Virus record (IMG/VR): IMGVR_UViG_3300031760_000008
Coordinates: 1-12,336 of that record
Reading direction: 5' to 3' (one strand)
DNA: 12,336 nucleotides
Source: a virus
Taxonomy: Duplodnaviria > Heunggongvirae > Uroviricota > Caudoviricetes
The notes beneath the pieces were generated by a model that was given only the letters and a program-made list of their open reading frames with translations, ran no database searches and was not told where the DNA came from. How positions within the stretch are numbered: position 1 is the stretch's first letter; the number at the start of each line of letters is the position of its first letter. Of the stretch, positions 724 to 6,106 are shown piece after piece. Position numbers and translations under genes: made by a program.

Positions 724-2619
724 TTAATTAGAACTTCTATTTAAAAGTAATCTGATAGTAGTTTCGCTAGCTACATTAAGAGTATTAATATCATCTACTG
801 TTTCTCTATTTCTACATCTAGATATTCTAAGTAGATATAAATTCTTTTTAGGTCTAGTTAAAGCTACATATTGTAAATTTTTCTCTTGTTGTTGAGCATC
901 TTCTGTTTGAGAACTATATACATATGGAAATCTAGGATAATCATAAATATATACATTATCAGCTTCTCCACCTTTCATCATATGTATAGAAGATAAAATA
1001 GGTGCTTCTTTATTTATATTTCCTTTTAAGAAAGAATCTATATATACTTCTAAATCTTTTACAAGTATAGAACTACAATTTTCTTTATAATTATTAATCA
1101 AAGATTCTACTACATCATAATATTCAGCAAGAACATTATCTTGCATACCATCATATACAAAAGAATAATCTCCTTCTTCTTTATATTCTTTCATGCAATC
1201 TAATAAATAATCAACAGTATAATTAGATTTAGAAATAGGTTTCTTTAATGTCTTAGCATTTTTAACTAATCTTTTAAAAGTATTTTGCATATATTCCCTA
1301 TCAGATTTAGATATTTTCTCATCACTTTGTTTCCAATCGATATTTGCTTCTTCACATAATCTATATAACTCTTTTTCAACATTTAAACATTGATTATATC
1401 TTTTTATATATTCTTTAATAACTCTTTTAATTTCATTTACAATAGTTGTTACCATTTCAGTATTTTTAAATTTAACAGAAATCTTATCATCAAGTACTAA
1501 TTTTTTATATAATCTAACCAAATCATTATTTCTTCTTGCAAGAATTACATCATTTGCTTTAATATTTTTAGCTAAATCAATTTCATCTAAAAATTTAACT
1601 TCTCCTTTATCATCTCTTTTATGATTCCAATCAATTTCAGGTACTATATCTTGAGCTACCTTAATTACATTTTCAGGACATCTATAACAAATATTTAAAG
1701 GTAATTCATTTAAAGCAAAATTCTTTTTTAAATTTCTAATAGATTTAGTATCAGCTCCTGCAAAAGCGTAAATACTTTGTTTTTCATCTCCAACAGCTAT
1801 TAATCGAGTATCAAAATTAATAAGTAGTTTTAGAAATAATTGTTGTAATACTGATAAATCTTGAGTCTCATCAACAAGAACAAAATCTAAATATTGACGA
1901 GTAGCCCAAGGAACATTCATTTTATATAAACAAGGAAAATATATCATATCAGTATAACCAACTCTATAAATAGGTTTTCCAAAAGAATCTAGTTCAGGAT
2001 TTTCAAATTCATATTTAATTTTATCAATTGCTTCTTCTATAACTTCAGGAAATTTTCTTAATCCTAAATCATCCCAATTTTTCAAATTCCAACATAAACG
2101 AGGAGCTAGTTTATATATCTCATCATAATCATGATAATTAACATTATATAATCTAGAATAATTAACCATTTGAGATATTTCTCTTAATACATCTCCAAGT
2201 AAATCTTTAAAATCAGAATCAGATAATTCAGCATTAGCTATTCTGAATTCAGTATCACATTTTTGAGCAAATGAATTTTGTACCCATTCTTTAATCCTAT
2301 CATCATGCTGATCTACTTCAATTATATAATTCTCTCCATGTTTCTTATATAAATAAGATCTTAAAAAAGTTAATCCTAAACTATGTAGAGTTTTAATTTG
2401 TACATTATCAGAAATAATTCTAGTTTGTAACTCTTGTACAATTGATTTATTAAATGCTAAAAATAAACATTTTTTATCTTGAGCAATAATTTTATCAGCT
2501 ATTAAACATAATGTAGATGTTTTACCAGATCCAGCTTTTGCATCTACAAGTAAATTTCCATTATTACTATCTATATAATTCAAAATATTTTTTTGATAAT
2601 TACTTGGTTCAAATGACAT
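724..2619 (-). CDS. Superfamily 1 (UvrD/Rep/PcrA-like) ATP-dependent DNA helicase
   Basis: Walker A AKAGSGKTS, motif Ia LAFNKSI, motif II VDETQD, AVGDEKQSIYAFAGAD, LNICYRCP, SIHMMKGGE and YVALTRPKK. AAAGGAG RBS upstream. Confidence 0.93.
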   Translation of the reverse strand: MSFEPSNYQKNILNYIDSNNGNLLVDAKAGSGKTSTLCLIADKIIAQDKKCLFLAFNKSIVQELQTRIISDNVQIKTLHSLGLTFLRSYLYKKHGENYIIEVDQHDDRIKEWVQNSFAQKCDTEFRIANAELSDSDFKDLLGDVLREISQMVNYSRLYNVNYHDYDEIYKLAPRLCWNLKNWDDLGLRKFPEVIEEAIDKIKYEFENPELDSFGKPIYRVGYTDMIYFPCLYKMNVPWATRQYLDFVLVDETQDLSVLQQLFLKLLINFDTRLIAVGDEKQSIYAFAGADTKSIRNLKKNFALNELPLNICYRCPENVIKVAQDIVPEIDWNHKRDDKGEVKFLDEIDLAKNIKANDVILARRNNDLVRLYKKLVLDDKISVKFKNTEMVTTIVNEIKRVIKEYIKRYNQCLNVEKELYRLCEEANIDWKQSDEKISKSDREYMQNTFKRLVKNAKTLKKPISKSNYTVDYLLDCMKEYKEEGDYSFVYDGMQDNVLAEYYDVVESLINNYKENCSSILVKDLEVYIDSFLKGNINKEAPILSSIHMMKGGEADNVYIYDYPRFPYVYSSQTEDAQQQEKNLQYVALTRPKKNLYLLRISRCRNRETVDDINTLNVASETTIRLLLNRSSN

Positions 2620-2650
2620 AATATTTACAACTCCTTTATTTTATACTATT

Positions 2651-2660
2651 TATAACAACT
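2651..2660 (-). promoter_or_regulatory. Putative extended -10 promoter (AGTTGTTATAAAT) for the helicase
   Basis: TG-n-TATAAA about 30 nt upstream of the ATG. The same TGTTATA core recurs upstream of other genes. Confidence 0.5.
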
Positions 2661-2840
2661 CATATTATTAAATTTGCTATTACTATTATATTACAGTTTT
2701 GAAAAAATGGAACGAGATTTATTAAAATAAATTTAGGAAAATTTTTGGATCTGAGCAATCCATTGAAATAAAAAGCTTCGAATACGGTTTTTTAAGAATT
2801 TTTGGACAAATAGTCGGTATATTTATAAGGCAAAACTCTG

Positions 2841-2920
2841 TATACTCTATATAATGATATACTCTATATAATGATATAGTCATATAATGATATAGTCATA
2901 TACTTATATAATGATATCAC
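2841..2920. repeat. Tandem array of four ATATAATGATAT cores (iteron- or DUE-like)
   Basis: Exact 12-mer at 2849-2860, 2866-2877, 2882-2893 and 2906-2917, with ACTCT or AGTC linkers. Confidence 0.9.
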
Positions 2921-2932
2921 TCAATTCTCATT

Positions 2933-2991
2933 TCTGTTTCAGATTCAGATCTCTTTATCAAATTTCAGATTCAATTATCTGTTTCAGATCT
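2933..2991. repeat. Second short-repeat cluster built on TTCAGAT
   Basis: TCTGTTTCAGAT at 2933-2944 and 2978-2989. TTTCAGATTCA at 2937-2947 and 2963-2973. TTCAGAT occurs four times. Confidence 0.85.
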
Positions 2992-3006
2992 GTTCTGGAA
3001 ATGATT

Positions 3007-3613
3007 TTTGACAGATTTGTTAAACACCACCAGACAACCGATTTATAACACGGACAGCATCCACTTCGTGTGACGCTCGTGTTTTGGAAGCAGAAGTCAC
3101 CTTACCCTCCTCTCTAAAATCAATAAAAAATTGACGTTAGAGATGAGAGTAAAGTGCCCGAAAAAAATAGTGAGAACCTGGCTGGGGTGCTCACTAGAAC
3201 AATTTTCATAACGCGTGATTACGCGCTTCGTATAGCTTTCGGCCACATGCTAGATACTACTTCCTCACCAAGACTCGCTTATATGAGGGTCCTATAAAGA
3301 TTTTACAAGTAAGTCGGTTACTGTGATTATATATCTTACTTGTAGTAATTTGTATTTCGTTTCTAGTTACCTGCTATCATCTATTTACTTGATTCATACT
3401 GTGTTCAAATATATTGGAAATTACATTTGAACAACTGAGGTAATTAATATTTGCTTATGAACTTTCTATATATGCATCGCACGAGGACGGGATTAAATTT
3501 GTTCGCAGCTCGCGAGATGACTCTTTAACAGCCGACAAAACAGCACAACCGAACCGCGCCTGGTACTTGGAGATCGAACTTAGACAAGTTGAAATACCTT
3601 TCCATCGGTCAAA
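3007..3613 (-). ncRNA. Putative large (~610 nt) structured non-coding RNA, family not recognised
   Basis: No long ORF and raised GC (57/120 at 3481-3600 versus 8/60 in a sample coding line). Helices: 19/20-bp stem 3137-3156/3098-3117, 10-bp 3335-3344/3304-3313, 9-bp 3425-3433/3402-3410, 7-bp 3592-3598/3562-3568 and 7-bp 3221-3227/3210-3216. The termini pair (3613-3604 with 3016-3007, 9/10). G-U pairs work only on the minus strand. Confidence 0.7.
3161..3196 (-). terminator. Intrinsic terminator/attenuator-like hairpin inside the structured RNA
   Basis: Minus strand reads TAGTGAG-CACC-loop-GGTT-CTCACTA followed by T7. Confidence 0.55.
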
Positions 3614-3620
3614 TTCAATT

Positions 3621-3650
3621 ATTATTATTTATATAAAAATAGTATCGCAA
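3621..3650 (-). promoter_or_regulatory. Putative sigma-A-like promoter for the 610-nt RNA
   Basis: TTGCGA (3650-3645), a 17-18 nt spacer, then TAATAA/AATAAT (3627-3621). The predicted start near 3615 coincides with the 5' strand of the closing helix. Confidence 0.4.
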
Positions 3651-3688
3651 CTTCTATATAAACTTTAATAATATCTTTTATATCTCCC

Positions 3689-3948
3689 TTAACGTTGTGT
3701 TGCCAGTTATTTATTCAATCTAAATAGATTAAGTAGATTTCCTATCAACTACTCCTCAATATGCTTTCCCATATATCTTGATTATGCTGTATGAAATTAT
3801 ATTAATATTTCATTCCCTATAATCTTGTTTTGAATCAATTATAGTTTAAATAGAACTACTTTAAAAATATAGTTTATCTGATGTGTTATACAAACCGTTA
3901 CAAGAGTTCCTTTTTATAAATGTATACCTCAACTCTTTTGCACGTTAA
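3689..3948 (-). ncRNA. Compact ROOL-like structured RNA
   Basis: Closed by a 7-bp helix TTAACGT/ACGTTAA (3948-3942 with 3695-3689). Internal stems at 3931-3937/3902-3908 and 3807-3813/3791-3797. Segments GTTCTATTTAAACTA..AATTGATTCAAAAC and GAGGAGTAGTTGATAGGAAATCTACTTAATCTATTT..TTGAATAAATAACTG match my recollection of the 3' part of ROOL RNAs, which is unverified without cmsearch. Confidence 0.55.
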
Positions 3949-4164
3949 TTTTTTACTTTATAGATTTTATCCCAGGGCAAGGGACACCAGATTTCTGTGA
4001 TCAGCCTAAGAGGCATTTCCGTTACGAGTTATTCTAAAGGAGGGATTAGCTTAAATATCAAAACTTATTTATCTAATTTTCATATGACGCTCTAGAACCT
4101 ACTTTTAATGTTATATAAAACTATCTATATCTGGTCATAGATAGAATTTTAATTTACTAGATAT

Positions 4165-4233
4165 TTATAACATCTTTTTAAAGCAAATTAATAATCATGT
4201 GAAATTTTTATCACATGATTATTATAACATCTT
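4165..4233 (-). promoter_or_regulatory. Tandem extended -10 promoters flanking a perfect 14-bp inverted repeat
   Basis: Direct repeat TTATAACATCTT at 4165-4176 and 4222-4233 (minus strand AAGATGTTATAA[T/A], i.e. TGn-TATAAT). Inverted repeat TAATAATCATGTGA/TCACATGATTATTA at 4189-4202 and 4211-4224. Confidence 0.65.
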
Positions 4234-4239
4234 AATTTT

Positions 4240-5346
4240 TTAATTTTGATTAAATCTTTCAAATAGTCCCCCACGAATAATTTTATTATCTTCTCTAATT
4301 GGTAGAGATTTATCAAGATCTTCTATTTTTAAGTGATCTATAAGATGAGAAATTCTATCATATAAAGCTTCCACATCTAGAGTTTTAATTTCTAAATCTT
4401 CTAGAATAGAATAAATCTGAGGTCTATTATTATTTTCAAAAGGCATACAGTTACTATAAATAGTTGTTTTAATATTATTGATTACATCATCAGTAATATC
4501 ATCATCAATTAATTTTAAGTTTGTAAGTAATATATTAGTTAAAAATTGATCTTCATTAAAATTAAGATAAGCTTTTCTTTTAGGTACATCCATTTCTTTA
4601 CATACTTTATCTAATTCTTCTTCTGTTTTAGGAAAAGATCTTTCTTTATCTACTAAAGAACTAAATAACTTATATAAACCAGGAGCTGTTTTTTCTCCTA
4701 CTTGAAAACATGCAGAAGGAATATTATCTGAAGGATCTCCTACAATGCACTTACAACCTATATACTCATCTATATTCATATTCTTCTCTTTAAGAGTATT
4801 TATATCCCACATTTCTTCTTTCATGGGTCTTCTTACTTTACATCTTCTATTATCATCTTCAAATACAAGTTGTATTAAATCTTTATCATCTGAAACAACA
4901 ATACTATTTCTACTCATTTTAGAAAGAATACAAATTAAATCATCACCTTCCCAATCATTAATTCTAATTGTAGGTATTCCAAATAAAGGTAATAATTGCA
5001 TTAAATCATTTCTTTGAGTACTATATTCTCTTCTAAATTCTAAATCAAATAGTTGTTCTTCAGTTAAATCTTCATCTTTACATTCAAGTAAAGCTTGTCT
5101 TTCAATATTCTTTTTATAATTAGGATATATTTCTAATCTTCTTTTAGATAATCCTCCATCAAATATTACAACTGGATAGAAATTCCAATCCTTAGATTCT
5201 TTAATAATAGACCTAAGTACTCCATATATTCCACCTGTTCTTTTACCTTTAGAGTTTATCATTTCCCATTGATTAGGTTGACTAAGATTTCTATGTAATA
5301 AATACGATCCATCAAATATTAGAACTCTATTAAAGTTAATATCCAT
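4240..5346 (-). CDS. 5'-3' exonuclease / flap endonuclease (Pol I 5'-nuclease, T4 RNase H and T5 D15 family)
   Basis: LIFDGSYLLHR, VIFDGG, RRLEIYPNYKKN, WEGDDLI, VVSDDKDLIQL, and the H3TH motif GDPSDNIP..VGEKTA. AGGAGG RBS. Confidence 0.93.
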   Translation of the reverse strand: MDINFNRVLIFDGSYLLHRNLSQPNQWEMINSKGKRTGGIYGVLRSIIKESKDWNFYPVVIFDGGLSKRRLEIYPNYKKNIERQALLECKDEDLTEEQLFDLEFRREYSTQRNDLMQLLPLFGIPTIRINDWEGDDLICILSKMSRNSIVVSDDKDLIQLVFEDDNRRCKVRRPMKEEMWDINTLKEKNMNIDEYIGCKCIVGDPSDNIPSACFQVGEKTAPGLYKLFSSLVDKERSFPKTEEELDKVCKEMDVPKRKAYLNFNEDQFLTNILLTNLKLIDDDITDDVINNIKTTIYSNCMPFENNNRPQIYSILEDLEIKTLDVEALYDRISHLIDHLKIEDLDKSLPIREDNKIIRGGLFERFNQN

Positions 5347-5473: not shown

Positions 5474-6106
5474 TTATCCTTCATTTTGCTTATGTTGATA
5501 AACAAGTCTATTTCTTATCTCCTTTATAGCCTTCATAGGATAAATTTTATATTTATCACATAAAATTCTTATTTGTTCATCAGTTTTAGAATTATATATG
5601 ATATCATCTTTAGCTTCTCTAGATAGAATTATTTGTTTTTTAGAATTAACTTTAACATGTTCATTTTCTGTAACATATACATCTATACCAAATTTATATA
5701 TTCTTTGTTGTGGAATTTCTACTTCTTTCTCTTTAGGTTTAATAGTTCTTTCTCTTTTTATATTTAGATTAAAATGATCTTTTGCAGCATTAATTACATT
5801 ATTTAAATCTTCAATTGATATAGTAGCTACATAATTATATAAAGATCTTTGATCTCCTGTATGTAATGTATCTAATTCTACATACATATAATCATTATTA
5901 ACTTTAACTCTACAAAATGATCTCTCCCCATATTCAGTAGGTTTTACTTTCAAATAAGTAAATTTTTGTCTTTGAAATTCATCAGTAAAAGCTGATAAAA
6001 TTAAAACATAACCAGAGCCAGCGCTCATGCCTTCATAATGTTCTTCATATTGATTTATACTTTTAACTGACCATATAGTTCCTCTTTTTAAATAAATATT
6101 CCACAT
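5474..6106 (-). CDS. Hypothetical protein with a probable N-terminal PemK/MazF-like fold and a helical, possibly HTH, C-terminus
   Basis: LKRGTIWSV...VLILS...VELDTLHTGDQRSL..YVATISIEDLNNVINAAKDHFNL parallels the PemK pattern KRGDIYWV..RPVLVVS..LLEQIRTIDKSRL..IG.LS.E.M..V..AL...LGL. Confidence 0.5.
   Translation of the reverse strand: MWNIYLKRGTIWSVKSINQYEEHYEGMSAGSGYVLILSAFTDEFQRQKFTYLKVKPTEYGERSFCRVKVNNDYMYVELDTLHTGDQRSLYNYVATISIEDLNNVINAAKDHFNLNIKRERTIKPKEKEVEIPQQRIYKFGIDVYVTENEHVKVNSKKQIILSREAKDDIIYNSKTDEQIRILCDKYKIYPMKAIKEIRNRLVYQHKQNEG

Follow-up and report, generated by a model that had tools for sequence, protein, structure and literature searches.

Large ornate RNAs of the ROOL and GOLLD types are described from phages, prophages and rumen and lake metagenomes (PMC5737381; bioRxiv 10.1101/2024.12.08.627333), with ROOL often located near tRNA genes and in prophages (PMC5737381). 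For replication that is linked to RNA, the described systems include ColE1, in which a persistent hybrid requires that an rG stretch pair with a dC stretch in the template, and the T4 origins oriF and oriG, each consisting of a promoter of the middle-mode class plus, downstream of it, a DNA-unwinding element (PMC4412123 for both). The present work concerns a 12,336-nt stretch of phage DNA, hereafter denoted the window, which forms the first 12.3 kb of the 140,808-bp IMG/VR virus record IMGVR_UViG_3300031760_000008 (69% complete according to CheckV; 27% GC). Between a 5′-3′ exonuclease gene and a UvrD/Rep-type helicase gene, the window contains a gap (2620–4239), within which lies a cassette that alternates, among related phages, with a gene for a predicted winged-helix protein (hereafter the slot protein). 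We consider it probable that this cassette, at approximately 4155–2840, is a self-contained and exchangeable non-coding module, which yields one or several uncatalogued structured RNAs and serves the process in which the slot protein acts.

The gap is the longest gene-free stretch in the entire 140-kb record, and its flanks are as the sequence-only reading of this DNA had claimed, with Pfam matches to both the exonuclease and the UvrD-like helicase (Table 1); the exonuclease gene is syntenic across all relatives. Each of the six reading frames of the gap is interrupted by 34–52 stop codons and the longest open run is 75 codons, so that the gap is non-coding and rescue by frameshifting is impossible. 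A protein-coding gene relying on +1 frameshift recoding at CGG, of which the gap holds only seven triplets, is excluded by the same stop codon counts. A 53-aa open reading frame (ORF) at 2722–2883 is not conserved. The record also includes a T4-type portal gene and a thymidine kinase gene; the phage is an uncultured, T4-like, 27%-GC phage of the ruminant gut with a genome of lytic type.

In L014/L015, L022–L026, L027, L033, L048 and L049, whose exonucleases are 53–86% identical to that of the window, the slot between the two genes holds an ORF of 508–558 aa, followed by an intergenic region of 0.5–0.7 kb. These ORFs are mutually homologous and fast-evolving (29–57% identity, compared with 54–90% for the helicase) and have no similarity to the cassette. 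The two types of phage share only the exonuclease terminator/promoter on the left and the last ~120 nt, with the helicase promoter, on the right; an nhmmer search of the protein-carrying relatives with the cassette alignment matched only these shared promoter and terminator ends. Every relative examined has one insert or the other, and an empty slot was not seen. A hidden Markov model (HMM) of the slot protein found its positive control and nothing in this record or in an 87%-complete sister genome, and a decayed slot-protein gene in the gap was rejected as tblastn and the HMM were both negative.

When maximum-likelihood trees are built for the exonuclease gene and for the 5′ part of the helicase gene, the RNA and protein states are interleaved on them, and branches with good support require no fewer than three switches. 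Sister pairs of opposite state include L035 (RNA) and L027 (protein), with support of 100/99, and L031 (RNA) and L022 (protein). Since the states interleave on the trees of both flanking genes, the inserts behave as alternative alleles exchanged by recombination; these comparisons show a ~1.3-kb module, consisting of GC-rich islands and two repeat arrays (~4155–2840), which swaps with the protein gene, evidently by recombination at the conserved flanks. The right boundary of the module is placed just after the repeats, because L035 has different sequence there, which in its helicase-proximal part shares 94% identity with L022, whose slot holds the protein gene; L034 keeps the filler found in the window.

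Six more copies of the cassette, all located between the same two genes, were obtained by protein-anchored searches, giving seven in total: those of the window, L007, L034 and L035 are full-length, whilst those of L031, L032 and L028 are cut by contig ends. Identity to the window is 97.5% for L006/L007, 93% over the full length for L034 and 90% up to the repeats for L035; the fragments are 95% (L031), 90% (L032) and 88.6% (L028/L029) identical. All seven copies thus occupy the same slot, and both repeat arrays are present in each of the four full-length ones, with variation in their number and arrangement. Eighteen public runs, from at most 13 studies, hold at least half of the sampled words of the stretch, and phages with the module are widespread in the guts of cattle and sheep.

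Comparison of the copies indicates that the three GC-rich islands (A, C and D; Table 1) are under purifying selection. Between cassette phages, third codon positions diverge by 23–29% in the exonuclease gene and by 10–18% in the helicase gene, whereas the islands diverge by 0–6% and the spacer between islands C and D by 22–28%; the islands therefore evolve 5–10 times more slowly than either the exonuclease third positions or the internal spacer. Because islands and spacer differ in rate within one module, the conservation is not that of a piece recently transferred as a whole and is instead ascribed to selection on the islands. At 2990–3159, only two substitutions are found in ~170 nt among the window, L034 and L035; both fall at paired positions of a predicted hairpin and both keep the pairing. 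The islands reach a GC content of 0.44–0.53, compared with 0.27 for the genome. Island C ranks first in GC (0.53) among the 100-nt windows of the 140-kb genome and island D ranks seventh, with most of the remaining top windows lying in the tRNA cluster.

Table 1. Features of the gap and its two flanking genes, ordered along the minus strand (positions are those of the window)
Feature	Position	Strand	Evidence or remark
5′-3′ exonuclease gene (FEN / Pol I N-terminal type)	4240..5346	-	Pfam PF02739 5_3_exonuc_N, E 1e-21, and PF01367; left anchor of the slot
Candidate promoters P1 and P2, two tandem ATGTTATAAW, extended -10 type	4230-4221, 4173-4164	-	Motif
Perfect 14-bp inverted repeat, 8-nt loop, T-rich tail	4189..4224	-	Repeat search
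GC-rich island A	3955..4102	-	2.4-3.3% divergence in L034, L035 and L031
Segment B, AT-richer hairpin region	3620..3949	-	7-14.5% divergence; several compensatory pairs
GC-rich island C	3450..3615	-	GC 0.53; 0-2.4% divergence
AT-rich spacer between islands C and D, fast-evolving	3390..3449	-	22-28% divergence
Island D, 5′ part: several hairpins, the last an intrinsic-terminator-like stem-loop with seven T (3194-3161)	3160..3389	-	
Island D, 3′ part: 27-bp imperfect hairpin (3156-3098) and G-rich 3′ domain	2990..3159	-	
ATCTGAA (plus strand TTCAGAT) repeat cluster	2937..3000	-	Contains the palindromes CAGATCTG and ATCTG-AAA-CAGAT
16/17-nt tandem repeats (TATATCATTATATAGAG type)	2841..2917	-	
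Filler between repeats and helicase promoter	2745..2840	-	Outside the conserved module
Helicase promoter and leader	2620..2744	-	CGTTCCA box 2714-2708; TATAAT 2690-2685
Helicase leader: second TGTTATAAAT motif and Shine-Dalgarno AAGGAG	2657-2648, 2636-2631	-	
UvrD/Rep-type SF1 helicase gene	724..2619	-	Pfam PF00580 UvrD-helicase, E 6e-29, and PF13361; right anchor of the slot

Folding predictions favour one strand. For 3010–3310, the minus strand has a minimum free energy (MFE) of -99.8 kcal/mol compared with -74 kcal/mol for shuffled sequences (z = -5.0), whilst the opposite strand reaches -75.2 (z = -3.2); as the gene strand folds better by 25 kcal/mol, a difference that points to G-U pairs and hence to RNA, the RNA would be read in the direction of the genes. 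The 411-nt region 2990–3400 of the minus strand is likewise more stable than shuffles (z = -4.7). In the upstream half of the cassette, compensatory changes occur at 5 of 95 predicted pairs, compared with 0–1 in slid controls and a mean of 1.3 in shuffles, of which 3 in 1000 reach five. One hairpin of island A carries a CG-to-UA compensatory change, the hairpin at 3343–3305 an AU-to-GC change, and the 4224/4189 inverted repeat a T-to-A change together with an A-to-T change in L028 and L032, by which pairing is kept. The changes seen among relatives in the terminator-like stem-loop at 3194–3161 lie mostly in the loop and the T run, with a single stem mismatch, in L035.

The minus-strand order given by the sequence-only reading (promoters, candidate structured RNAs, TTCAGAT repeats, 16/17-nt repeats, A/T segment) was confirmed from the sequence, although two of its units need qualification. 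Its ‘610-nt RNA’ (3007–3613) may not be one unit, since the terminator-like stem-loop and the fast-evolving spacer (3449–3390) both lie within it. Its ‘A/T-tract segment’ is largely the helicase gene's own promoter, and is replaced by other sequence in L035. Both repeat families are real and clustered: TTCAGAT has four copies inside 52 nt (2938–2989), in addition to related copies, and ATATAATGATAT has four exact copies inside 69 nt (2849–2917), an array with the best Tandem Repeats Finder (TRF) score in the window (94). Counted over the whole window, neither TTCAGAT nor ATATAATGATAT exceeds chance, and it is the clustering that is unusual. The 16/17-nt array of the window is 33 nt, or two units, longer than those of L007, L034 and L035.

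The ATGTTATAAW motif of the candidate promoters P1 and P2 is kept in all seven cassette copies; genome-wide it occurs nine times on the coding strand and three times on the other, mostly before genes. The inverted repeat at 4224–4189 is probably the terminator of the exonuclease mRNA, or else an operator overlapping P1. The CGTTCCA-N17-TATAAT element of the helicase promoter occurs five times in the genome, before genes. The form (C)CGTTCCA followed by 17 nt and TATAAT, found at 2714–2685 of the window and at genome positions 139258, 135648, 126302 and 121061, defines a phage-specific promoter class which precedes at least five genes and resembles activator-dependent middle promoters. Two further motifs were noted in the upstream half of the cassette. 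AACTC(TT)GTAACGG occurs twice, at 4030–4019 and 3908–3895, and is intact in four of six cassette copies at one site and in five of six at the other; island A also holds CCTCCTTT (4044–4037), which is identical to the anti-Shine-Dalgarno core of 16S rRNA.

Searches for known families gave no counterpart to the cassette. Rfam cmscan, run on the whole window at the gathering threshold and on both strands of 2500–4400 with permissive filters at E ≤ 10, returned only chance-level miRNA and snoRNA rows, with no match to the ROOL or GOLLD covariance models in either scan; the label ‘mini-ROOL’, which the earlier reading had attached to segment B, is accordingly not upheld. Neither ARAGORN nor the Rfam rows at E ≤ 10 contain a tRNA or tmRNA in the window. 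Blastn at distant sensitivity against GenBank phages and PLSDB plasmids found no match to the cassette, and when the islands were compared by BLAST with the complete sequences of records L014, L015, L008 and L011, nothing was found. Exact-word scans of IMG/VR (with GAGAGGAGGGTAAGGTG, GGCGCGGTTCGGTTGTGC and GGCCGAAAGCTATACGAAGC), JGI metagenomes (GAGCGTCACACGAAGTGG) and GTDB genomes (GGCGCGGTTCGGTTGTGC) returned only two sister contigs and chance matches; the latter have no more than 21 nt in common and come from high-GC DNA. Homologues in unrelated contexts, which would have counted against a link with the replication genes, were thus not found in GenBank phages, PLSDB, IMG/VR, JGI or GTDB.

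The cassette resembles ROOL and GOLLD in being a large (0.6–1.1 kb), GC-enriched, multi-hairpin non-coding RNA candidate in a rumen phage. It differs from them in having no Rfam match, in being restricted to a single narrow lineage, in its two arrays of tandem repeats and in its alternation with a protein gene. Its context differs from that of ROOL also, as the window has no tRNA (the tRNAs of the genome lie at 42.6–48.4 kb, more than 38 kb away) and the T4-like genome is of lytic type.

The slot protein itself gave no match in Pfam, PHROGs or a PDB sequence profile, and none by Foldseek against the PDB at E ≤ 0.001. Its AlphaFold model (pLDDT 72) contains at least two winged-helix units, and a structure search placed ORC/Cdc6 winged-helix domains (Z 8.2, 7.2 and 6.6) level with NsrR, CodY and MarR. 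The language-model neighbours of two divergent slot proteins (0.85–0.91) include HTH_36/DnaA_N, ‘replication initiation protein’, Phage_rep_O, RepL and RepA_N clusters, which serve as leads only. The slot protein is thus predicted from its model to be a multi-winged-helix DNA-binding protein, for which a role as replication initiator is plausible. Between the slot gene and the helicase gene, protein-carrying relatives have 50-nt windows of 2–6% GC (L048:3910–4500, L049:3788–4500 and L014:4484–4994), and in some of them AAAGCTAAAGCTTT-type palindromes occur in the same intergenic region; together, these palindromes and AT-rich windows are candidate binding sites or a candidate unwinding element for the winged-helix protein.

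In the mechanism we propose, transcription would start in the gene direction at one or both of the extended -10 promoters that follow closely on the exonuclease terminator, giving a transcript of ~1.0 kb that ends at the terminator-like hairpin 3194–3161. If the polymerase read through this hairpin, the transcript would also include the long hairpin and the G-rich 3′ domain, perhaps with the repeat arrays as well, for a length of ~1.15–1.4 kb. The product may be one or several structured RNAs of an uncatalogued family, of which islands A, C and D would be the selected parts or functional folds, with the AT-rich stretches as linkers. Given the allele swap and the position in the replication gene block, this RNA most likely serves the slot protein's process, which could be the control or initiation of DNA replication, or of transcription of the gene block; RNA priming would be one option among several for the biochemical role of the module.

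Several observations weigh against this proposal. Taken alone, island C folds no better than shuffles (z = 0), and neither do island A alone nor the 540-nt upstream half (3620–4160; z = 0.03). As the terminator-like hairpin sits within the best-folding region, the ends of the transcript are uncertain, and the conserved GC-rich islands could be sites that act at the DNA level. All copies are at least 88% identical, which leaves the covariation test with low power, and the structure tested was derived from the same alignment, so that covariation is supportive and not decisive. The family is restricted to a single narrow lineage of phages, and the searches yielded no distant homologue by which the structure could be confirmed. 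Among the public runs compared with the window, all as assembled contigs, RNA libraries contain a few matching contigs, namely two of 151 nt from a bovine library, identical to the window at 3702–3852 and 3862–4012, and one of 303 nt from a sheep library, with ~92% identity at 3293–3595. These contigs are too few, have a depth of only 2–4, are matched by similar coverage of ordinary genes and may reflect DNA carry-over; they give no evidence on expression.

The sequence-only reading had proposed an RNA-linked replication origin by analogy with ColE1 and T4. In ColE1 the hybrid is processed by RNase H and extended by a DNA polymerase, and at T4 oriF/oriG leading-strand synthesis is primed by a persistent R-loop. 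Like RNA II of ColE1, the cassette would give a folded RNA of several hundred nt, transcribed in the direction of AT-richer sequence, and a gene for a FEN/RNase H-type nuclease lies close by. It differs in having neither an rG run nor a dC run, and no similarity to PLSDB plasmids. The RNA (minus) strand of 2620–4239 has no G run of four or more (the longest is three), and the analogy fails on this single feature that can be tested from sequence. The resemblance to T4 lies in the T4-like phage itself and in the special promoter (CGTTCCA-N17-TATAAT) and 15–18% GC leader at 2714–2620, which precede a replication gene as at T4 ori(uvsY). This promoter and leader are, however, common to all relatives, with or without the cassette, and lie outside the module, and T4 origins need no long folded RNA.

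A comparison may also be drawn with phages that swap modules and with iteron plasmids. Non-homologous inserts between replication genes, a protein with at least two winged-helix units and an RNA allele with clustered direct repeats are shared features. On the other hand, the initiator identity of the slot protein is weak and generic, the cassette repeats do not have the usual iteron length and phasing, and iteron origins have direct repeats beside an AT-rich unwinding region, with the cognate initiator that binds them encoded nearby, whereas the HMM finds no homologue of the slot protein in cassette phages. We know of no precedent for an RNA-only allele in the swapping of replication modules.

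Among the other explanations, one is that the module is a replication origin, in which the P1/P2 transcript provides an R-loop, a primer or control of initiation, the repeats act as iterons, and the whole replaces the initiator and origin of sister phages. The location of the slot between genes for a primer-removal nuclease and a helicase fits such an origin, as do the multi-winged-helix nature of the slot protein, with its ORC/Cdc6 and initiator-flavoured matches (as leads only), the absence of this protein from cassette phages by HMM, the 2–6% GC windows that follow its gene in relatives, and the clustered direct repeats that travel with the module; whole replication modules are, moreover, known to be swapped in phages. 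No positive signal of an origin was obtained, however. GC skew, proposed earlier as a check, was computed and is monotonic in this record, in a 178-kb sister and in a complete 196-kb relative, which is uninformative, because GC skew cannot locate an origin where all genes are co-oriented. The RNA strand does not have the G run of ColE1, and the winged-helix matches are generic, with MarR, CodY and NsrR scoring equally. The lowest GC of any window in the gap, 0.15 (0.6th percentile), is not extreme for a genome in which other sites reach 0.10, and the AT-rich filler adjoining the two repeat clusters is not conserved with the module. Typical phased iterons are of ~20 bp, and the irregular 7-nt and the 16/17-nt repeats of the module are unlike them. 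We therefore give the replication-origin module limited weight, and regard an origin role of any kind as unlikely; that the folded RNA and repeat arrays do the job of the winged-helix initiator and its origin, with populations swapping between protein- and RNA-dependent initiation, seems quite improbable, and RNA priming specifically very unlikely. The non-coding RNA cassette, which the sequence-only reading had offered as its fallback, gained support from selection, strand-specific folding, compensatory changes, promoter-like motifs and the terminator, whilst its RNA-primed origin gained no direct support.

A function outside replication would be served if the RNA, its repeat arrays or both sequestered a host protein, such as an RNA-binding defence nuclease or a regulator, as a decoy or sponge in host takeover or anti-defence, and if the winged-helix protein were an alternative accessory cargo directed at this or a different host function. 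This would suit the alternation of the module among near-identical backbones, the fast evolution of the protein allele relative to the helicase and the shifts in repeat copy number between close relatives, which recall the copy-number changes of phage pseudo-ToxI expansions; the position immediately upstream of the exonuclease likewise carries alternative cargo. It is rather unlikely, nonetheless, as the lack of an empty slot in any relative examined suits an essential function over an accessory one, no defence-related partner was identified, and known type III antitoxin repeats are much longer than 7 or 16/17 nt. The islands and repeats might instead be purely DNA-level sites for protein binding or structure, in control of the helicase operon, packaging or recombination, and the CAGATCTG and ATCTG-AAA-CAGAT palindromes and the 14-bp inverted repeat would suit dimeric DNA-binding proteins, as the conservation of island C without unusual folding energy would suit such a site. 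With 400 nt near-invariant, far beyond the needs of binding sites, a gene strand that folds 25 kcal/mol better than its complement, and promoter-like motifs and a terminator bracketing the islands, we consider this highly unlikely. That the cassette is a functionless remnant or selfish insert (an inactivated gene or mobile element, or foreign DNA that was picked up) is a very remote prospect: the slot is a recombination hot spot and the GC content of the islands is unlike that of the genome, but the 5–10-fold slower evolution of the islands speaks for function, and no similarity was found to the slot protein (tblastn, HMM) or to the sequences of phages, plasmids, genomes and metagenomes that were searched.

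Large structured phage RNAs, GOLLD and ROOL among them, are rare and all lack a known function. The unusual clue offered by the present candidate is that it and a gene for a DNA-binding protein are population-level alternatives at one fixed position of the replication block, and the exchange of alleles gives a direct experimental handle on function. If the slot protein is an initiator, the module would be a natural case of RNA replacing protein in origin function; if it is not, the module would still represent a new RNA family under strong selection.

Some further observations were made on the genomes and on the genes around the slot. In the three genomes G000, G003 and G001, nearly all genes over 140–196 kb lie on one strand and GC skew is constant at 0.2–0.3, an unusual arrangement among T4-like phages. 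In the complete 196-kb relative, an ORF-free gap of 1.45 kb (G001:C1:34910–36357) has a GC content of 17.8%, lower than that of any other long gap there, and is another candidate origin region.

The UvrD-type helicase of several relatives contains an intein (L014:4995–7901, L023/L024, L025 and L034:5001–7793), with a LAGLIDADG endonuclease in L014 and L023–L025 and only an intein-splicing domain match in L034; the 631-aa helicase of the window has no intein, and in L025 the helicase frame is split after the intein. The gene just upstream of the exonuclease marks a second alternative-cargo position, occupied in the window by a 210-aa ORF without a Pfam match (5474–6106, minus strand) and in L014 (865–1506) by a 213-aa ORF with a match to Pfam Proteasome (E 3e-16); the two are non-homologous, BLASTP between them being empty. 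The thymidine kinase gene is intact in the window (179 aa) and is split into two ORFs (109 and 57 aa) in L025:1540–2079 and L026:2–544.

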